Virus record (IMG/VR): IMGVR_UViG_2879469214_000003
Span: 1-64,000 of that record
DNA: 64,000 bases
Source: a virus
Taxonomy: Duplodnaviria; Heunggongvirae; Uroviricota; Caudoviricetes
Strand: one strand, 5' to 3'
Shown: positions 37,460 to 61,105 of the stretch, piece by piece
How the letters are laid out: the number at the start of each line of letters is the position of its first letter
Numbering within the stretch: the first letter of the stretch is position 1
Translations under genes and position numbers: made by a program
The notes under the pieces: model-generated
Seen by the model: the letters and a program-made list of their open reading frames with translations, nothing else
Databases searched by the model: none
What the model was told of the DNA's origin: nothing

Positions 37460-38959
37460 TCAATCTTTGTTTAAAGCCTTGCGTAAATTTGCAACTTCTT
37501 TTTCAGTCTTAAGCTTTTTGTTTTCTTTCTTAAGTTGCTTAAGTTCTTTTTCGCCTTGTGATGGAACCAGATATCCCTTTTCAATCCACAGATTCTTACC
37601 TTTGTCTACTTCAAAACAGAGGATATCCTTGTCCTTACCTCCGCGATTCTTATCAATTACTACCATGTAATAGTTAATATGCATTTCTAATTGTGTCGTA
37701 GACTCACCTATAAAGGGATCATTAGGATTGTAAATTACGAACTTATCATATTGATCTCGCGATATCGGTTTTGCCATCATTAAAGAATCTGCAACGTGCT
37801 TGATATGCTTGCCATTTGCAATAGCTTGACTGGTAAGCATATCATTGAATAAGCTATCATCAGTGAGTTGAAAGGTAGACCAAACAGGAATATCTTCGGT
37901 ACTTGCTACTTCTTTAAGCATGTCTGCTGTTCTTACGAATGTCATCCAATCATGATCAGGTGCTTTCATTGTGTCATAAATAATCAACTGGCAATTTCTT
38001 AGTTTATGACGTTTAATTTGTCTCTTTAGAGTATTTTCATCGTACTTATTTAACTCCAAAAAGTATATCTTACTGTTTTGTTCTATGTATTTGGCTGCCT
38101 CTTTAACGATTTCTTCTTCATCCGCATTTAAAGTGCCTGTTACGATTTTGGTCTCATCAATACCGTCAATCCCTCTGCGCTTCATCTGCACATCAAAACC
38201 AAATTCGGGATTATTAAGTACACAGCTAATTTGCATACCTAGCCATTCAGCTTCATCTTGCTCGTTTACTAGTACCAATACGGGAATTTGTAGTTTGATT
38301 CCTAAGTAGCAAGCAATTTTACTTGTTGTTCTACTTTTACCACATCCGCTATGCATCCCAAAGAGGTTAAATTTCTTGCCCCTAAGCCCCCTAATTAACC
38401 CGTTAATGATCTCAAATGGAACTGGAACACCTACATCAGGAGTAAGCTTCCATTCTTCAATTTTGTCTGACATGTTGTGTCCTAGTATAATGCTATCTTC
38501 AACTCCACCTATGATAGTGCCAATGGTGTTGATCTGGTACTCCATACCTTTGATGATATCTTCTGTTCCAATCTTATCAAAATCTTTTCTCCCCATTAGC
38601 TTTTGCACCGGGAATCCTTTTCTTTCTAGTTCTCTTAATAGAGAATACTTCTTAAGTTTTTCGTAGTAAACTGGAAAATCGTCTAAATCTACAAGTTTCA
38701 TAATTCTGTGAATACATTTGTAACCTTTTAAATAGTCATATTTCGTTTTTCGATCTGGGTCTGAGTTCATATAAATATTTATCTTTACTTCATTAATTTC
38801 TGTTCCTGCATGTTGACTGTAGAGATCCATAAGTGAATCATAGAGAAACTTATTTGAAGGTTGGTTAAAATCATAGTTAGATTTTATTAGTTCACTATAA
38901 TCTAGAAGTAAATCGGGATTAGAGTACATGCTGCCTACTATTAACATCTCTGTTGCCAA
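37460..38959 (-). CDS. replicative DNA helicase (DnaB-like)
   Basis: 499 aa. P-loop GMHSGCGKS, RecA-like C-terminal domain, N-terminal helical domain. Confidence 0.55.
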   Translation of the reverse strand: MATEMLIVGSMYSNPDLLLDYSELIKSNYDFNQPSNKFLYDSLMDLYSQHAGTEINEVKINIYMNSDPDRKTKYDYLKGYKCIHRIMKLVDLDDFPVYYEKLKKYSLLRELERKGFPVQKLMGRKDFDKIGTEDIIKGMEYQINTIGTIIGGVEDSIILGHNMSDKIEEWKLTPDVGVPVPFEIINGLIRGLRGKKFNLFGMHSGCGKSRTTSKIACYLGIKLQIPVLVLVNEQDEAEWLGMQISCVLNNPEFGFDVQMKRRGIDGIDETKIVTGTLNADEEEIVKEAAKYIEQNSKIYFLELNKYDENTLKRQIKRHKLRNCQLIIYDTMKAPDHDWMTFVRTADMLKEVASTEDIPVWSTFQLTDDSLFNDMLTSQAIANGKHIKHVADSLMMAKPISRDQYDKFVIYNPNDPFIGESTTQLEMHINYYMVVIDKNRGGKDKDILCFEVDKGKNLWIEKGYLVPSQGEKELKQLKKENKKLKTEKEVANLRKALNKD

Positions 38960-49426: not shown

Positions 49427-49452
49427 GATGGCGCTTGTCGCCGTCTTTTTTT
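49427..49452 (+). terminator. rho-independent terminator
   Basis: GATGGCG-cttgt-CGCCGTC followed by T7. Confidence 0.6.
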
Positions 49453-50065
49453 ATTGACAAAAGTCCTTAATTATCTGATCAATATCCATCTCCATATCCC
49501 ACCATATCTTGCCTTCCTTAACTTCTGGGTCTTTATGAAGATTCATTTCATTGTCTAATCTAAAAGTATTCTGACCGTACACCTTTCCATAACTCATTCC
49601 ATATCTCGTACCGCCTTCAATTACTCCTTCATCTTTCACTGTAACGATTTTTGGACACAGTGCGGCTAGTAGCCGATCACGTTCAATCAAACGCTTGGAA
49701 AACTGACTCAATCCTCTCTCATTACTTTCAACTGCCTTTGTGGTGTACGGATGAACAATACATCCATTTTTCTTAATTTCCTCTGAGAGACTTCTGTTTT
49801 TCCATGGATATATCTCTTGCTTAGTAGGTGTGTTAACAATTGCAATCGTCTTTCCTTTTCCAGCTATGGCTCCTTTATGAGCGGCTGCATCTATGCCCTC
49901 AGCCAATCCTGAAACAACTATGTATCCGTGTCTTGCTAAATTACAGGCGAAAGTGTGCGCCGCCTTTAGTTCGTCTACACTTGCTTTTCTTGAGCCAATC
50001 ACGGCAACCCATCTGTCTCTTTGAGTTAGATCCATATTCAAACCAGTTACTTTAATTATGACCAC
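49451..50065 (-). CDS. DprA/Smf-like Rossmann (SLOG) protein
   Basis: 204 aa. VIGSRKAS...ARHGYIVVSGLAEGIDAAAHKGAIA...GKTIAIV. Confidence 0.55.
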   Translation of the reverse strand: MVIIKVTGLNMDLTQRDRWVAVIGSRKASVDELKAAHTFACNLARHGYIVVSGLAEGIDAAAHKGAIAGKGKTIAIVNTPTKQEIYPWKNRSLSEEIKKNGCIVHPYTTKAVESNERGLSQFSKRLIERDRLLAALCPKIVTVKDEGVIEGGTRYGMSYGKVYGQNTFRLDNEMNLHKDPEVKEGKIWWDMEMDIDQIIKDFCQ

Positions 50066-54310: not shown

Positions 54311-54360
54311 ATTATATCACCGTTTTATATGTATGTACAGTTTTATTTTAGTGTAATTAA
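54311..54360 (-). promoter_or_regulatory. repeat motif (TTAATTACACTAAAATAAAAC) plus promoter TGTACA-17-TATAAT
   Basis: Motif overlaps the stop of 54357..54869 and abuts the -35. Confidence 0.55.
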
Positions 54361-54869
54361 CTAATTCGAATATGCTTTTTATCAGTCACCAGTGTCGCTC
54401 CATCAATCTCAAGTCCGTTCTTAACATCCTTAAGCAAAGCTTTACTGTCAATCTTCGGTTCTTGTGTAATCTTATATGTATCTGGAATTTTAGTTGGATC
54501 ATATACATTGATTGAAGGTGGATTCACCTGTAATTTAACTTTGAATACTCCCGCATTCATTTTCTCAATATGGTTACCTTCAAGGTATTCCTGTAGAAGA
54601 CCTTTCAAACGTTCCTGTTTATTTTCCATGTATTTACGCTTTTTACTGAAACGCTGTTCTTCAGCTTTAAAAGTTGCAATTGTTCCTTCAAGATTTCGAA
54701 TAAACTTAACGATGTTCTCGCACTTATTTTCAATACCGTCTTCCAGTGCTTCAAGAGTATCTTTATACATTTCAAAATCATCTTCACCAATTTCATCGTT
54801 TTCTAGTGCTGTTTCAAGGTAATCGCTCAGGAACTTATAGTCTTCAGATAGTTTGTAAAGTGATGGCAT
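54357..54869 (-). CDS. hypothetical coiled-coil protein
   Basis: 170 aa ORF. Confidence 0.4.
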   Translation of the reverse strand: MPSLYKLSEDYKFLSDYLETALENDEIGEDDFEMYKDTLEALEDGIENKCENIVKFIRNLEGTIATFKAEEQRFSKKRKYMENKQERLKGLLQEYLEGNHIEKMNAGVFKVKLQVNPPSINVYDPTKIPDTYKITQEPKIDSKALLKDVKNGLEIDGATLVTDKKHIRIS

Positions 54870-56527: not shown

Positions 56528-57220
56528 TTGAAAAAGAAAAGAAGGAAACTTGGCGTGCCTATGGCGCATGTATCTGCGACGTATAAGAAAATAACTGTGA
56601 GCGTCCCTGCTGCTCCTGTATCAGATGTACTGCCTGCGACAATGACATTTTACGTTGATACGAGATTTACCACCGCCCAAGTTAATCGAATACGGCAAAT
56701 CATTGGAACAGTCTTAGGAAATTGGGAAGCGCATTTCGATGCATTAAACGAAGGAGATGCACTTTCAAGATACCAAAATTGTGTAAATAAATATGCCAAG
56801 TTTAATTTAGCACCTGTTTGGTTCGAAGAAAAACTGGCTAACGGGGCTGCTGCTGCTGCCGTTCAAATGGATGGGCTGACTACCATGATTGCAGCCAATG
56901 GTTTCGGCAGAGCTGCTAAAGCCTATATTATGTACCAAAATTCCCGAAGTTCGACCATTAAAGGAGTCAATGCTTCTAATCCTGAAAAGAATTCATTGAC
57001 GGTTACTATAAATGCATCCGCTCTTAATTCATATTCGGTATCAACAATATTCTTAGGCGGCTCTCTTCATCATGCTTGGCTCCATCGTGAAGGATATCGG
57101 CATCCTGCTGGGAAATATACAAGTTATTTTGCCGGAGAAAGTAGCATGTGTGTTATGAGAGGAAATAATGATAAATCAGTCGGAACTCCAGATAATAGTT
57201 ATACGAAATGGCTGGATTAA
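56528..57220 (+). CDS. hypothetical protein with atypical (higher GC) composition; plus-strand insertion
   Basis: 230 aa. GCG/CTG/GCC-rich codons unlike its neighbours. Start uncertain (TTG at 56528 or ATG at 56561). Ala-rich segment. C-terminal HHAWLHREGYRHP. Confidence 0.45.
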   Translation: MKKKRRKLGVPMAHVSATYKKITVSVPAAPVSDVLPATMTFYVDTRFTTAQVNRIRQIIGTVLGNWEAHFDALNEGDALSRYQNCVNKYAKFNLAPVWFEEKLANGAAAAAVQMDGLTTMIAANGFGRAAKAYIMYQNSRSSTIKGVNASNPEKNSLTVTINASALNSYSVSTIFLGGSLHHAWLHREGYRHPAGKYTSYFAGESSMCVMRGNNDKSVGTPDNSYTKWLD

Positions 57221-57307: not shown

Positions 57308-57544
57308 TTATAAATCTCTTTGACCTCGAACAAACTTATGTATTTCAATCAATTTCTTAAAATTACGTTTACGCATCATTTCATTCACTTCTACAATAAT
57401 ACTTAACATTGCTTCCTGATGATCGCTACGCATAGCTGATGGGCAATCTAAGGTGTTTGGAATGGCTGCATTATGTAGTTCTTCACTTTCTGGACAGCAC
57501 TGATTAAAAGCATTCCACAAACAATGTGTGTTATTACAATTCAT
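57308..57544 (-). CDS. small Cys-rich protein
   Basis: 78 aa. CNNTHC...CCPE. Confidence 0.35.
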   Translation of the reverse strand: MNCNNTHCLWNAFNQCCPESEELHNAAIPNTLDCPSAMRSDHQEAMLSIIVEVNEMMRKRNFKKLIEIHKFVRGQRDL

Positions 57545-57695
57545 TTAATTCACCTTCAGACACAGACATTTCCGACAAACTTTCAGATAGTTCCTTATAC
57601 TTATATGTAAGCAGTCTTGAAACCTCTTTTCGTTTTTCATCATCATATGTATGCCAATCTAGAGCTACACTATTCAAATAATCTTTTGTTATCAT
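57531..57695 (-). CDS. small acidic hypothetical protein (54 aa), translationally coupled to 57308..57544
   Basis: RBS AAAGGAGA-N8-ATG. Its stop overlaps the downstream ATG (TTAAATGAATTGTAA). Confidence 0.3.
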
Positions 57696-57778
57696 ATTGT
57701 TTCGTCTCCTTTTCTCTAAGAAAGTCCTCTTTTATTATATTTTTACTTTTAAATATGGTAGAGATCATATAATGATCC

Positions 57779-59044
57779 CTACTCCTGAATTGTAAGTGCG
57801 TATTGAGAAGTATTGCTATGTACCTCAAGCTTCTCTACTAACTGTACAGCATAACCCACAAACTCTATAAAATTGCCATCATCTAGTTTAAATGAACCAA
57901 TTATATTTTTTATGGTCTCTTTTTGCTCAGATGAAAGTTCATCTATAATGAGGAGTATCCTTAATGATTTACGAAAAGCATCAATAAGCAACTTCTCAAA
58001 CGTGCGATCATGACTTCTTTCTGGCATATCAGGATTGTAGCTCACCAACCACTGTCTCACCTTGCTCAGTTCGTTCTTTTCTACAAAATTTAGAATCTTC
58101 AATACCCATTCATTAATGTTTTCATCCCGTATCTTAATGTCAGTTACGATACTAAAGGCTGAAGCAAATCTGATTAATTGGGGTATAATATGCCCATTTA
58201 AATGAGTGAATTTTTGTACAGATCTTTGCTTGTTAGACCCGTAACACTCGTACTCTAATATATCAATTTGAATGGGATTCTTTTTACTATGATTAAACTT
58301 AATTAGTAATCCGTCTGGTATTCCACTTACTCCATCCACTTTATTATCATTGGCATCTTTATTGGAGGTCTTGAATACTCTATTAGCTGGTATCAGTATC
58401 GTGTCCTTTACAGGATACTCCTCGCTAAACAGCCTGTGAAAATTTTTATTTACTAATGTTTCAAGACCCCTAACTTTATGGGTTTCGTTGATAAAATCCA
58501 CTTTTCTAAAAGTCCCTGTAATATCTATACTATCAACATCTGTCGGATTTGCTGGATTTTCACTTTTCGACAAGTGACCCATACCTACTTGATCAGTCTC
58601 TAAGAAATACACTAACTCATCTGATTTATTAACAATAAAGGTTTCGTGTAAAACTTTTAAAGCTTCAGGATCTTTGATTGGCTTTGGAAGTTGAGTGAAT
58701 CTTTGAGACCAGTTCTCAAACGAGGACAGTACCTTCAGCGAAAAGGGTTCACAAAACTGCAAATCAATTATCTTATACCAATAAGAGTATTCTCTTGCTT
58801 CGTCCCAAGGTGTAAAATCAATTGACTTCTCTACAATTCCTTTTGCACCACAGTATAATCCCTTTTTCTTGTCAAACTTCACAGAAAAGTAAACAGTTTC
58901 TCCTACTTGTGCAAACCTCTTTTTGAAACCAACAACTGAATTTTCTATGCACTTGTAGTAGTTATCAATTGATTCACCACAACTAAATATTCTTGCTGTC
59001 ATTAGGCATCTTTCCTTTATGTATGTTTTACTTATTAATTCCAC
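57779..59044 (-). CDS. candidate restriction-type nuclease with N-terminal PUA-like (EVE-like) domain, encoded downstream of the Dam methylase
   Basis: 421 aa. N-terminal about 130 aa has an EVE/PUA-like pattern (VVGFKKRF...GETVYFSV...GLYCGAKGIVEK). The central region has a possible nuclease signature (GIPDGLLIKF...IDILEYE...K). Confidence 0.35.
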   Translation of the reverse strand: MELISKTYIKERCLMTARIFSCGESIDNYYKCIENSVVGFKKRFAQVGETVYFSVKFDKKKGLYCGAKGIVEKSIDFTPWDEAREYSYWYKIIDLQFCEPFSLKVLSSFENWSQRFTQLPKPIKDPEALKVLHETFIVNKSDELVYFLETDQVGMGHLSKSENPANPTDVDSIDITGTFRKVDFINETHKVRGLETLVNKNFHRLFSEEYPVKDTILIPANRVFKTSNKDANDNKVDGVSGIPDGLLIKFNHSKKNPIQIDILEYECYGSNKQRSVQKFTHLNGHIIPQLIRFASAFSIVTDIKIRDENINEWVLKILNFVEKNELSKVRQWLVSYNPDMPERSHDRTFEKLLIDAFRKSLRILLIIDELSSEQKETIKNIIGSFKLDDGNFIEFVGYAVQLVEKLEVHSNTSQYALTIQE

Positions 59045-59100
59045 AAGGAAAATAATATCCCTTCTATTTTTGATGGCCTAATGACAGACACGAACTAGAA

Positions 59101-59880
59101 TCAACCTGTTACATCATAATTCGTAATAATCAACTCACTAAAATTTTGTCTGCCATTGTCGCTCTTGCAAACACTATAATAAACTTCATGATCCATGATA
59201 TTAAAATCTTTAAACAACTCTCTTATGTATTGATCATCATTAATAGTGTAGAGCCACTTACCTCTTGCTTTCTTGCAGCACTCAGCCAAATTATAAAACA
59301 TCTCATCTGTAAATTTGCCAGTTGCATATTGTTTTGTATTTCTGTAAGGACTGTCGAGATAGAAGAATGTATCTGGACTATCATAGATCTTAAAAATATC
59401 CTCAAAGCTCTTATTCTCAATCGTTACTTTTTTTATACGTTCATATGCTAGTCTGATATCTTCTTCGATTTGTTCCAGTCTAAGACGATTCCTATCTTTT
59501 CCAGTTCCAAAGATAGGATTTTTCATATCTGCCCCAAAGCCAGCCTTGACCATATAATAGAATGCTTTCGCTCTTTCAATTGAATCATCAAATGTGTTAT
59601 TTTTATATTTATTTTTGTAGTAGTCGAAACGTTCTCTGCTTACCAGCTCCCATTCAAAACTCTTGATGAATTCCTCATGAGCATTTTGAATAACTGACCA
59701 AAAATTCATAAGATTGCTGTCAAAGTCATTTAGAATCTCCCACTTACTTTTCTCCTTACTTAATAGCATGATGGCAGAGCCACCGAAAACTTCAACATAC
59801 CCTTTATGCTCTGGAAACAATGGCATCAATTTGCTTACCAATTTACTTTTACCGCCTACCCATTTTAGTGGACTTTTCAT
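59101..59880 (-). CDS. Dam-family DNA adenine-N6 methyltransferase
   Basis: 259 aa. N-terminal KWVGGKSKL..FGGSAIMLL (Dam motifs). C-terminal DSPY-type motif (YLDSPY). Confidence 0.85.
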   Translation of the reverse strand: MKSPLKWVGGKSKLVSKLMPLFPEHKGYVEVFGGSAIMLLSKEKSKWEILNDFDSNLMNFWSVIQNAHEEFIKSFEWELVSRERFDYYKNKYKNNTFDDSIERAKAFYYMVKAGFGADMKNPIFGTGKDRNRLRLEQIEEDIRLAYERIKKVTIENKSFEDIFKIYDSPDTFFYLDSPYRNTKQYATGKFTDEMFYNLAECCKKARGKWLYTINDDQYIRELFKDFNIMDHEVYYSVCKSDNGRQNFSELIITNYDVTG

Positions 59881-60343: not shown

Positions 60344-61105
60344 TTAGAATTTATCTTTATTTTCATTTAATTCTTCATCAATTTCTCTTTTTCCCTTTCC
60401 AAGCAAAAGTAGAGCAGAAACTGTCTTTTCTACTTTTACTACTCTACGCAAATCTTCAGTGCTTAGGTAATCACGCAATGGTTCGTTCTTATCAATCCCA
60501 TAAATTTCTCTAAGTCCCTTTGCATTTATATCAAATAACAGTTTATACACCATGTCTGTAAGCACACTGTAAGCAATGCCTGTGCTCATGGAACCTGTGT
60601 AAAAATCTCTAATTGCATCAGTGAGTTGTCTCCGTTCTTGTCTTGCAATTTCTCTATTAACTGCCCATTGAATTTGTTCTTTTGATGATATCTCCTCAAC
60701 ATTGAGAAGGTAATGGCGAACTGATTTAGCAATTTCAGATTCAGTAAGTAACATTCCAATTCGGAGAAGTCCACGACGAGATATAAGCGTGAGTGATGGA
60801 GCAGTTTTTAGCTCAGGTTCAAGTTGAACCCGACCCTTAAAATCTGACAATGAAGTACCTTTAAGAATTCTTATCTCTCCATAGTCGTTAAATTCAGAGC
60901 GATTACGCTTTATGAGCGTTTTAATAGTCTCATGTGGTACTTCATAATAATTTGCTGCCATTTCAATGGTCACTTCAGTTGTTTCTGGTATTACAGTAAC
61001 AAGTTTAATCTTATCCATAACATTATCTTTAAAAACTAAATCATCACGCATTGTTTTGCTTTCGGTGAGAATAAGTTCGTTTCGTTCATTAAGATCTAAT
61101 TCCAA
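60344..61105 (-). CDS. ORF6N-domain antirepressor-like protein
   Basis: 253 aa. TIEMAANYYEVPHETIKTLIKRNRSEFNDYGEIRIL resembles the phage ORF6N / antirepressor N-terminal domain. Confidence 0.45.
   Translation of the reverse strand: MELDLNERNELILTESKTMRDDLVFKDNVMDKIKLVTVIPETTEVTIEMAANYYEVPHETIKTLIKRNRSEFNDYGEIRILKGTSLSDFKGRVQLEPELKTAPSLTLISRRGLLRIGMLLTESEIAKSVRHYLLNVEEISSKEQIQWAVNREIARQERRQLTDAIRDFYTGSMSTGIAYSVLTDMVYKLLFDINAKGLREIYGIDKNEPLRDYLSTEDLRRVVKVEKTVSALLLLGKGKREIDEELNENKDKF

Follow-up and report, generated by a model that had tools for sequence, protein, structure and literature searches.

The stretch of DNA analysed here (the window, 64 kb) has a phage context, and the cassette described below belongs to a large prophage of low GC content in Paenibacillus xylanexedens. 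ORF analysis of the window located two co-directional genes on the minus strand, a methyltransferase gene followed by a large ORF. The features of this cassette are the following:

59101-59880, minus strand: D12-class (Dam-family) N6-adenine DNA methyltransferase, 259 aa (Pfam, PADLOC and PHROGs profiles)
59003-59100, minus strand: spacer of 98 nt between the methyltransferase and nuclease genes, with an RNA hairpin (inverted repeat and RNA folding)
57779-59044, minus strand: nuclease ORF counted from the first GTG, 421 aa (ORF list)
57779-59002, minus strand: nuclease with the ATG start at 59002, 407 aa (homologue N-termini, Shine-Dalgarno sequence and NCBI protein)
58619-59002, minus strand: N-terminal reader domain, residues 1-128, predicted PUA-superfamily, YTH/EVE-like beta-barrel (fold level)
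58523-58618, minus strand: acidic linker, approximately residues 129-160, of variable length and predicted to be disordered (pLDDT and alignment)
57779-58522, minus strand: predicted C-terminal PD-(D/E)xK nuclease domain, approximately residues 161-407, and the stop codon (fold level)
57763-57777, no strand: GATCATATAATGATC, a small stem-loop 2 nt past the nuclease stop (position and frequency count)

A sequence-only reading of this region had described the second gene product as a 421-aa protein encoded 56 nt from the methyltransferase gene. An ORF of that length exists, but the true start is almost certainly the ATG at 59002, which yields a protein of 407 aa. The N-termini of the nuclease homologues line up at this codon in the alignment, a Shine-Dalgarno sequence, AAAGGAAAG (59010-59018), lies ahead of the ATG (59000-59002), and the 407-aa form is 100% identical to NCBI protein WP_124115374.1 of P. 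xylanexedens, which is also 407 aa long. The gap between the two genes therefore measures 98 nt, and the shorter distance holds only when counted to the GTG.

The product of the first gene contains the motifs PLKWVGGK, VFGGSA and YLDSPY. It matches Pfam PF02086 (1.8e-28) with 100.4 bits, above the curated threshold of 22, as well as PADLOC MTase_II (1.9e-48) and phrog_56 (1.8e-71), and its earlier recognition as a Dam-family enzyme from KWVGGK and DSPY is borne out by the profiles. The narrower dam model TIGR00571 gave 114.2 bits, marginally under its cut-off of 114.85. The AdoMet-binding motif I (FxGxG) is represented by VFGGSA, and the catalytic motif IV by DSPY, an unusual variant of (D/N/S)PP(Y/F/W), compared with DPPY. 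The best PDB sequence relatives are the adenine methyltransferase 7m6b, DpnM (2dpm) and E. coli Dam, with E values of only 1e-8 to 1e-13 for the solved DpnM and E. coli Dam. The window contains 247 GATC sites compared to 272 expected under a Markov model, which indicates no depletion. The enzyme appears to be a phage-type, orphan-style Dam-family adenine methylase and not a cognate type II partner of the nuclease.

The 407-aa protein has no match in Pfam, PADLOC, PHROGs or the PDB by phmmer and profile searches, and its single NCBIfam match is far under the cut-off of that model. The faint matches of the family are to DUF7669 (10 of 42 members, best E value 0.006), and the family is unannotated everywhere. 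At the level of predicted folds, the protein combines an N-terminal modification reader and a C-terminal nuclease in one polypeptide. The reader is predicted to adopt a PUA-like beta-barrel of the PUA superfamily, of YTH/EVE-like type, and the C-terminal domain a restriction-endonuclease-like alpha/beta core of the PD-(D/E)xK superfamily. Both a reader-like barrel and a PD-(D/E)xK-like segment had been proposed from the sequence; the two proposals are upheld for the fold only, and neither domain is recognised by any sequence library. The linker between them has pLDDT values below 50 at residues 136-157 and corresponds to an alignment block of variable length that is rich in E and D.

The best matches of the nuclease domain are DNA endonucleases. 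Its invariant residues are E181, P229-D230, E250-Y-E252-C-x-G255, Q275, R278 and D354, with near-invariance (at least 90%) at Y254, K258 and E355. E181 lies in the first helix, P229-D230 ahead of a strand and E250-Y-E252 in the next strand. The putative catalytic motif, assigned by secondary-structure register only, is ExE...K and not the canonical ExK. In the reader domain, R4, N14, G25-F26, Y38, K42, P65-W66, Y72 and W98 form a putative conserved pocket, in which N14, F26, Y38, W66 and Y72 are invariant within the reader-nuclease family; the Cys residues at positions 8, 18, 51 and 84 are near-invariant. The putative catalytic and pocket residues are invariant over 42-68 homologues from many phyla.

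The reader domain forms a small family (111 clusters among 1.84 billion representatives). The Pfam EVE, YTH, ASCH and DCD models matched none of the 42 members even at E values up to 10, and the SRA model did not detect the reader either. Kinship with DCD domains, suggested by the motifs IFxC...EC...GF that we take to be characteristic of them, was dropped, as Pfam gives it no support. An hhalign comparison of the family with the YTHDC1-family alignment reached a non-significant probability of 2.9%, comparison with the single YTHDC1 sequence gave no significant probability, and an hmmsearch of the PDB retrieved fungal YTH domains at non-significant E values of 0.3-0.5. These weak alignments place W66/Y72 of the reader on W428/L439 of YTHDC1 and on an aligned W and Y of 4u8t, presumably Z. 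rouxii W254 and Y260. In view of the hhalign probabilities, this residue mapping to YTH is only suggestive.

The same reader is found in other architectures. At three loci it forms the N-terminus of McrB-like AAA_5 proteins, with McrC-like DUF2357+PDDEXK_7 genes next in line, an arrangement that is classical for type IV systems, and a solo copy of the reader adjoins an McrC gene. It is also fused to an ABC-type ATPase, accompanied by an HNH gene, with a type III-like Mod gene of the N6_N4 class immediately ahead; the Mod genes of L089 and L086 are 92% identical, and these loci were counted as one observation. N14, F26, Y38, W66 and Y72 are kept in the McrB-, ABC- and solo-type relatives, with W or F at position 66. 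The proteins upstream of the solo reader P0323 (L091/L092) looked like a PglX/type IIG methylase C-terminus, but as they have no Pfam match they were not taken as evidence.

Nuclease genes of this family are sporadic, with 70 loci among 185,579 species genomes. About 55 chromosomal homologues from many phyla stand alone, i.e. without an adjacent methyltransferase gene. No conserved neighbour of the nuclease was found over the 70 genomic loci, and R-M or defence genes make up approximately 10% of the immediate neighbours. Such a solitary, sporadic distribution is typical of type IV genes. Phage-context loci present another picture, in that an amino-methyltransferase gene lies directly beside the nuclease gene in 17 out of 17, representing roughly 10 lineages. 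The two genes are adjacent and on the same strand, usually with a spacer of 52-101 nt, and in most cassettes the methylase is upstream. The phages concerned range from 24 to 52% GC, and the partners fall into at least three non-homologous families, D12/phrog_56, N6_N4 (PF01555) and the phrog_799 type, whereas a C5 methylase was never found at the 17 loci. For the N6_N4-class methylases, N4-methylcytosine is a possible product besides the N6-adenine type. Even the sister nucleases L001 and L073 have partners of different families, and over the nuclease family the partner methyltransferases resemble Dam/DpnM (the window), MboIIA (L082) or nothing solved. Methylase-linked and solitary nucleases are distinguished by a single position (175, H versus D), and no group-specific change was found in the reader pocket.

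The order of a methyltransferase gene followed by a nuclease gene had been interpreted as the canonical layout of a restriction-modification system. The distribution contradicts a cognate pair, as the approximately 55 chromosomal homologues have neither an adjacent methyltransferase gene nor a conserved neighbour, and as the phage partners come from different, non-homologous families. Moreover, Dam homologues do occur without this neighbour in isolated phages, since 911 phage records contain Dam and none of these contains the nuclease. The nuclease was not matched at the DNA or protein level among 50,697 phage records, and partner-type methyltransferases, which are ordinary phage enzymes, are present without it in 295-1037 phage records. 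A classical type II system with matched specificity was therefore rejected, given partners of the D12, N6_N4 and phrog_799 types and mostly solitary homologues. DpnII and MboI likewise combine a D12 methylase and a PD-(D/E)xK nuclease on one strand, and DpnII has two methylases, as do the loci L044 and L074/75. However, the nuclease studied here, which has no Pfam match, does not belong with the DpnII or MutH/Sau3AI families, its partner methylase is not conserved, and most family members have no methylase.

In the closest relatives, a methyltransferase-nuclease pair is kept amid anti-defence genes such as Gad1, Gad2 and Gp5.9, and in related prophages accessory genes and anti-defence genes are mixed in this region as a mosaic. 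This mosaic, together with the commonness of Dam-type methyltransferases as phage accessory genes, would suit an improbable explanation without any functional link, in which an orphan Dam serving anti-restriction and a solitary nuclease are chance neighbours in an accessory hot spot. SPbeta-like phages presumably have a 'MTase slot' at the equivalent place, which would point the same way. However, by a rough estimate, with one to three methyltransferases per large phage, chance adjacency should amount to a few percent at most per locus, and immediate same-strand adjacency was seen in all 17 phage-context loci despite their range of GC contents and methyltransferase families. The adjacency recurs far too often in phage contexts to be a matter of chance, and some functional coupling is therefore real; the methyltransferase and the nuclease form a selected two-gene cassette with an interchangeable methylase family.

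The spacer of the window cassette contains a perfect 12-nt inverted repeat with arms at 58996-59007 and 59076-59087. The predicted spacer RNA has a minimum free energy of -34.4 kcal/mol (z = -2.8) and forms a long hairpin, starting just after the methylase stop, which buries the Shine-Dalgarno sequence at 59010-59018 and the start codon at 59000-59002, both of which are paired. Hairpins of unlike sequence cover the Shine-Dalgarno sequence or the start and first codons at L072, L071, L082 and L002. The regions upstream of methylase-linked nuclease genes are more structured than their shuffled versions, with a mean z of -2.1, whereas solitary genes average 0.0 (p = 3e-5 by the Mann-Whitney test, some of the loci being non-independent). 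We infer from these predicted structures that the hairpin may have a regulatory role. A scan for promoters and terminators around the cassette gave nothing above shuffles, and no internal promoter was found between the hairpin arms.

The closest known systems include the EVE-HNH enzymes VcaM4I and TspA15I, the EVE-DUF3427-PD-(D/E)XK enzyme YenY4I, the SRA-like-PD-(D/E)xK enzymes MspJI and AspBHI, and the EVE-PD(D/E)XK class predicted by Bell et al. (2020). PUA-nuclease fusions of this kind are well known to yield type IV restriction enzymes as well as tools with which DNA modifications are mapped. In contrast to these PUA-superfamily modification-dependent endonucleases, the family described here has a reader to which the Pfam EVE, YTH, ASCH and SRA models are blind, and a long, acidic linker. 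It is also an exception to the rule by which such enzymes stand clear of methylases: a methyltransferase is reported near fewer than 6% of PUA-nuclease type IV ORFs (PMC6765204), whereas the phage-borne copies always accompany an adenine-type methylase, whichever its family. Such obligate adjacency would not be expected of a plain type IV enzyme. The absence of a nearby cognate methylase by which Lutz et al. (2019) recognise type IV enzymes applies to the approximately 55 chromosomal loci and not to the window or any of the 17 phage-context loci.

The three modules of the cassette (EVE-like reader, amino-methylase, PD-(D/E)xK nuclease) also share one operon in systems described by Bell et al. 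(2020, PMC7641849), namely DCD-methyltransferase fusions with a PD(D/E)XK nuclease behind them, and EVE proteins in R-M operons. There, however, the reader is fused to the methyltransferase and not to the nuclease, and most of the examples come from archaea and thermophiles. A PUA-like sensor is likewise fused to an effector in PUA-Cal-HAD of E. coli ECOR28 (Zhang et al. 2026 preprint, PMC12871103), whose authors report PUA-like sensors genomically linked to N6-adenine methylases. Such linkage was found here at 17 of 17 phage-context loci and at the reader-ABC ATPase/Mod arrangement. The effector of PUA-Cal-HAD is a Calcineurin-CE plus HAD pair causing dNTP depletion, compared to a predicted PD-(D/E)xK nuclease here, and the neighbourhood of the window cassette has neither a Calcineurin nor a HAD gene. 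The two pockets also differ (F9, H23, W35, W38, Y100 and Y101 in PUA-Cal versus F26, Y38, W66 and Y72 here). The sequence similarity to YTH domains, the eukaryotic readers of N6-methyladenine (m6A), which bind RNA or single-stranded nucleic acid, and to the YTH-like N-terminus of Thermococcus gammatolerans McrB is insignificant. The latter reads m5C and not m6A, and a YTH-like fold therefore does not fix the ligand.

The explanation that we favour, with a probability of about 0.42 for the whole including its compatibility rationale, is that the phage carries a type IV-like nuclease that senses a modification, serves in restriction or exclusion, and is genetically coupled to adenine methylation. 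The 407-aa protein would be a single-chain sensor-nuclease, in which the YTH/EVE-like PUA-superfamily domain would take a modified base into its predicted aromatic pocket and thereby govern the C-terminal PD-(D/E)xK DNA nuclease; in this clade, the RNA hairpin would lock the ribosome-binding site and start codon of the nuclease. The nuclease may attack DNA carrying a modification that is absent from the host and from the phage's own amino-methylated DNA, so that competing phages would be excluded. The adjacent amino-methylase would supply the phage's anti-restriction methylation in a chemistry that the nuclease tolerates, and the tight linkage would keep a compatible methylase-nuclease pair together. 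Against this, some 20 of the 70 genomic loci come from cyanobacteria, whose DNA carries m6A, m5C and m4C; the target therefore cannot be m6A, m5C or m4C in a context-free way.

The recurrence of adenine-type methylase linkage in the reader-ABC/HNH/Mod arrangement, together with the YTH-like cage, points to m6A itself as the putative ligand. A simple m6A-dependent nuclease acting on double-stranded DNA would then be suicidal beside its own methylase, which favours a rather unlikely alternative, though the most probable of the rivals, that of an alarm nuclease coupled to the methylome, with the methylase as writer and the 407-aa protein as reader-effector. The methylase would write m6A on the resident (lysogen) DNA, and the intact methylated duplex would give no response. 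When a competing phage degrades the chromosome, unpaired m6A, m6-dAMP or short fragments would bind the YTH-like pocket and lift the autoinhibition of the PD-(D/E)xK domain, and the infection would abort; solitary chromosomal copies would use the m6A methylome of their own host. The sensing of a methylase-written mark, such as the Dam-derived m6-dAMP of PUA-Cal-HAD, would explain why the methyltransferase partners are interchangeable. If true, this would represent a portable writer/reader immune module carried by temperate phages with their own writer, built on a prokaryotic YTH-like m6A reader, and would extend the PUA-Cal-HAD principle of the 'methylome as danger-signal reservoir' to a nuclease effector. 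However, as McrB-like proteins carry this reader too, it would seem to bind modified DNA rather than free nucleotides, and the reader is not detectably of the PUA family of PUA-Cal, its pocket residues being different. The alarm also needs both genes to be on in the lysogen, for which the promoter and terminator scan shows no signal above background.

Genuine restriction-modification logic with a generic mark is improbable, though a little less so than chance neighbourhood. Here, m6A written by the neighbour would protect, and the nuclease would destroy DNA without m6A, so that host DNA would be degraded and superinfecting phages excluded, expression of the methylase first averting suicide. 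The position of the methylase, upstream and on the same strand in most cassettes, is consistent with this, as are the hairpins, predicted to hold back translation of the nuclease, and the fact that the phage-context nuclease never occurs without a methylase, whereas methylases are common in phages without the nuclease. Interchangeable methylases would be tolerable if m6A were recognised regardless of the sequence around it. Against this logic, the partners appear too diverse for a common recognition site (Dam/DpnM-like in the window, MboIIA-like in L082). In addition, without dense m6A the approximately 55 intact solitary homologues, which share the invariant pocket and catalytic residues, would kill their hosts, and the reader-McrB/McrC systems, which have no methylase, contradict the logic of unmodified DNA as the target. 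The characterised PUA/SRA/EVE-nuclease fusions and PUA-Cal are all activated, not inhibited, by their modified ligands (PMC6765204, PMC7897488, PMC12871103).

It is very improbable that the nuclease reads modified RNA (e.g. m6A in rRNA, tRNA or tmRNA) as an RNase or abortive-infection toxin beside an unrelated anti-restriction methylase, for although YTH domains are readers of m6A in RNA, YTH-like domains occur in McrB-like CoCoNuT systems predicted to target RNA (PMC11090510) and some PD-(D/E)xK folds are RNases, this leaves the adjacency to DNA amino-methylases in 17 of 17 loci unexplained, the nuclease domain best matches DNA endonucleases, and the partners of the reader elsewhere (McrC-like, HNH) are DNA nucleases.

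The family thus raises the questions of whether a bacterial or phage YTH-like domain may be an m6A reader, and whether the methylation written by the neighbour stands for compatibility, for protection or for alarm. Each of these three answers would clarify how temperate phages pair anti-restriction methylation with weapons against their rivals, and a positive result could give a new modification-specific nuclease reagent.

Just past the nuclease gene, a palindrome had been proposed as a switch coupling expression to methylation. The palindrome exists, at 57763-57777 and not at 57747-57761 as first given, an offset of 16 nt. A role as a switch is not supported by its frequency, which is that expected by chance (the window has 26 perfect inverted repeats whose 6-bp arms enclose a 3-nt loop, versus 24.9 expected), or by its sequence, which is unconserved in the two closest relatives, in addition to the wrong coordinates. 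Short stem-loops unrelated in sequence to GATCATATAATGATC also follow the nuclease stop directly in L071 and L072, and GATCATATAATGATC is probably, if anything, an mRNA 3' structure.

The product of the large ORF directly downstream of the D12-class methylase gene, 407 aa long, is 100% identical to WP_124115374.1, a "hypothetical protein" of Paenibacillus xylanexedens encoded on a 2.79-Mb contig. Because of this identity and of its phage genes, the window is a large prophage-like element, part of a large prophage in P. xylanexedens. Several PHROG families were matched by further genes, the GC content is ~35% across the whole 64 kb with little variation, and the methylase and nuclease genes lie on the minus strand within a long co-directional array.

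Features of the window
37460-38959, DnaB-type helicase gene, a phage gene
46949-48292, DNA polymerase gene, a phage replication/recombination gene
49451-50065, DprA-like gene, of the replication/recombination set
54357-54869, Mu Gam-like gene, a phage gene
57763-57777, palindrome GATCATATAATGATC, beginning 2 nt past the nuclease stop codon
59101-59880, minus strand, D12-class adenine methyltransferase (MTase) gene, 259 aa (PF02086, 1.8e-28; PADLOC MTase_II, 1.9e-48; phrog_56, 1.8e-71)

The TIGR00571 "dam" model scored 114.2 bits on this MTase, for a cut-off of 114.85. The sequence-only reading had described the downstream ORF as encoding 421 aa, which is its length when counted from the first GTG. 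However, the NCBI gene model, the N-termini of all homologues and a Shine-Dalgarno sequence (AAAGGAAAG, 59010-59018) place the start at ATG 59002, which gives 407 aa and a 98-nt spacer to the MTase gene. The palindrome had been positioned 16 nt away from its actual site; inverted repeats of its kind number 26 in the window for 24.9 expected, and GATC is not depleted within the window.

The 407-aa protein had no match in Pfam, PADLOC, PHROGs or the PDB sequences, and its single NCBIfam match was far under the cut-off. Several hundred homologues of 400-430 aa were found, none of them named, as every database entry for the family reads "hypothetical protein". Their alignment is unusually conserved (mean column identity of 57% across phyla) and comprises a 125-aa N-terminal domain, a variable acidic linker and a 250-aa C-terminal domain. 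The AlphaFold2 model built from it had a mean pLDDT of 83.6, with disorder confined to the linker (residues 136-157) and one loop. The C-terminal domain model resembles PD-(D/E)xK nucleases, namely SfsA and BstEII (8.0), N.BspD6I (7.5), HamA and Can2 (7.4), and NucS, FokI, NgoMIV and Cfr10I (7.2), and Foldseek searches with the N-terminal domain model, hereafter the reader, returned YTH domains only (probability 0.99-1.0). The catalytic-type residues E181, P229-D230, E250-x-E252, K258, Q275, R278 and D354-E355 are mostly invariant, K258 and E355 being conserved in at least 90%. The protein is thus a reader-nuclease fusion, and the guess of a reader-like barrel followed by a PD-(D/E)xK-like segment was borne out by the model and its fold matches. 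This architecture is of a known kind, a PUA-superfamily reader plus a nuclease, represented by VcaM4I, YenY4I and MspJI/AspBHI and by the predicted EVE-PD(D/E)XK enzymes of Bell et al. 2020. Membership of the EVE, YTH, ASCH or DCD sequence families was not detectable for the nuclease family, and three of its accessions looked for in the supplementary tables of Bell et al. were absent from them.

The phage-borne genes were examined in IMG/VR contigs of 35-171 kb, in SPbeta-like prophages of B. atrophaeus and B. velezensis, in the two closest relatives of the window (64-66% identity) and in a few further Bacillota loci. An amino-methylase adjoins the nuclease on the same strand in all 17 of these loci, which represent ~10 lineages with 24-52% GC. 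It usually lies upstream, with a spacer of 52-101 nt, and its family varies between loci (L-numbers denote loci with homologues of the nuclease or its reader).

Partner methylases of phage-borne nucleases
D12/phrog_56: the window, L071/72, L074/75 (two tandem copies), L081, L001 (one downstream copy)
N6_N4 PF01555: L082, L083, L002, L021, L073, L079, L044 (both sides)
phrog_799-type MTase: L001 (upstream), L078

No C5 methylase was a partner in any of the 17 loci, and even sister nucleases may be paired with methylases of different classes, as in L001 versus L073. The partners are ordinary phage MTases, found without the nuclease in 295-1037 phage records (e.g. Bacillus phage PJN02), whereas the nuclease occurred in none of 50,697 phage records and, in phage contexts, never without a methylase. 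On phages, the nuclease is therefore obligately coupled to amino-methylases. In this the phage-borne form is unlike the PUA-nuclease enzymes, of which the lack of a nearby methylase is a hallmark; a DNA methylase was found within 3 kb of <6% of PUA-nuclease ORFs by Lutz et al. (PMC6765204). Two loci have two methylases per nuclease, with N6_N4 genes on both sides in L044 (5189-8096) and two tandem D12-type genes upstream in L074/75 (6411-7898 in L074), an arrangement reminiscent of R-M systems that have two methylases, e.g. DpnII or type IIS. In L071 (1-17233) and L072 (1-8728), the closest relatives of the cassette, the pair is found amid known or predicted anti-defence genes, including Gad2 (PF26128), Gad1 (PF25705), NADAR-DarT1, T7 Gp5.9-like, Macro, MazE and a second N6_N4 MTase. 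Judging from these related prophages, the cassette sits in a counter-defence or accessory region.

In cells, the nuclease gene is solitary. A scan of 185,579 genomes, one per species, identified 70 loci in Bacillota, Bacteroidota, Cyanobacteria, Planctomycetota, Spirochaetota, Ignavibacteriota and others. No conserved partner emerged from all-against-all clustering of the neighbours. The genes immediately beside the solitary copies are heterogeneous, about a tenth of them being R-M or defence genes (type I REase, type IIG, Uma2, McrBC). Such a distribution is that of a self-sufficient defence gene which moves horizontally and turns up sporadically, and it excludes an enzyme of the classical type II. 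Linked and solitary members do not differ at the reader pocket or the catalytic residues, only at position 175 (H versus D), and presumably sense the same thing.

A profile of the reader alone matched only 111 proteins among 1.84 billion cluster representatives (E <= 1e-3), and the reader is thus a small, distinct family. Outside the 400-430-aa nucleases it occurs in three settings. At three loci McrB-like AAA_5 proteins carry it N-terminally and a McrC-like DUF2357+PDDEXK_7 gene comes next. This is the type IV layout in its classical form, so that the module is also employed by McrBC-type systems. One system, seen twice, joins it to an ABC/AAA_15/AAA_21 ATPase; an HNH gene comes after this fusion gene, which lies just 12 nt behind a type III-like ResIII and N6_N4 methylase pair. 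Finally, it is found as solo proteins of ~135 aa, and in one case the gene is flanked by a McrC gene and a GIY-YIG/DUF4357 gene. Common to all architectures are R4, N14, G25-F26, Y38, K42, P-W/F66, Y72 and W98. The defence island of L086 (175-13492), a reader-containing locus, encodes ResIII, an 847-aa N6_N4 Mod, a reader-ABC ATPase and an HNH protein; genes for a 1053-aa AAA_5 protein and for a McrC-like DUF2357+PDDEXK_7 protein come next. The island looks like a YTH-like reader inside a type III R-M operon beside a large McrBC-type system. Cysteines 8, 18, 51 and 84 of the reader (codons within 58751-58981), invariant in a 42-sequence alignment and only partly retained by the McrB-, ABC- and solo-type readers, may bind a metal or make disulfides.

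The sequence likeness of the reader to YTH domains is not significant (hhalign probability 2.9%; two fungal YTH domains in the top three of an hmmsearch against the PDB, at non-significant E values of 0.3-0.5), although the alignments are mutually consistent. In these weak alignments, the reader "CGAR" corresponds to YTH "FxGxAR", W66 to W428 of YTHDC1 (sequence confirmed identical to PDB 4r3h) and to the W of "DTSIW" in the Z. rouxii MRB1 YTH domain (4u8t), Y72 to YTHDC1 L439 and the Y of "SRYRH" in 4u8t, and N14, upon greedy extension, to YTHDC1 N367. We take these YTH positions to be those that build the aromatic cage for m6A and contact the base (W254 and Y260 in Z. rouxii numbering), and the mapping of the reader pocket onto the m6A cage is suggestive. 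The YTH-like domain of TgMcrB, however, reads m5C, so that the ligand does not follow from the fold by itself.

We tentatively favour, with a probability of about 0.4, a modification-sensing, type IV-like nuclease that the prophage would turn against rival DNA, the amino-methylase having been selected as a compatible partner without being its cognate one. Somewhat less probable is the main rival reading, in which the methylase writes m6A, which the YTH-like pocket senses when unpaired or released upon degradation of methylated DNA. This would mirror PUA-Cal-HAD, in which Dam-derived m6-dAMP activates the PUA domain; relatives of that system are reportedly linked to N6-adenine methylases (PMC12871103). 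It would also account for the interchangeable writers, the missing C5 methylases, the second architecture behind a type III-like Mod and the absence of a simple m6A-dependent duplex nuclease. The latter would be suicidal here and in cyanobacteria, whose DNA is m6A-rich. The McrB fusions, however, suggest that the reader binds modified DNA, the weak point of sensing released m6A. True R-M logic, with m6A as the protective mark, is improbable, since intact solitary copies and methylase-less reader-McrBC systems would be lethal; RNA targeting and a purely coincidental pairing of methylase and nuclease are minor alternatives. The methylase coupling poses a clean, testable question about how m6A is read when phages and bacteria are in conflict.

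A perfect 12-nt inverted repeat (arms 58996-59007 and 59076-59087) is predicted to pair the nuclease start codon with a segment beginning ~14 nt past the methylase stop, and an inner stem to pair the Shine-Dalgarno sequence with UUUUCCUU (MFE -34.4 kcal/mol, z = -2.8). Hairpins of unrelated sequence cover the Shine-Dalgarno sequence or the start or first codons in four other loci (L072, L071, L082 and L002). Taken together, MTase-linked nucleases have more structure in their upstream 100 nt than shuffled sequences do, with a mean z of -2.1 versus 0.0 for solitary genes (p = 3e-5, some loci not being independent). This suggests that translation of the nuclease may be held back or coupled to upstream events.

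Two small minus-strand ORFs, 57308-57544 and 57534-57695, lie directly downstream of the nuclease gene; one encodes a Cys-rich protein of 78 aa (phrog_2851, 1.9e-23), and the other, of 53 aa, had no match. The plus-strand gene 56528-57220 breaks the long minus-strand array, an orientation rare there. Its 230-aa product had no match in Pfam, PADLOC, PHROGs or NCBIfam and contains an Ala run and a HHAWLHREGYRH segment; perhaps the gene is a "moron", an accessory gene with expression of its own. Two genes upstream of the methylase, a 253-aa protein (60344-61105, minus strand) had no Pfam match and matched phrog_2657 "transcriptional regulator" (1.7e-41) and, weakly, an anti-repressor. Its position corresponds roughly to that of Gad2 in L071, where the Gad2 gene adjoins a different protein.
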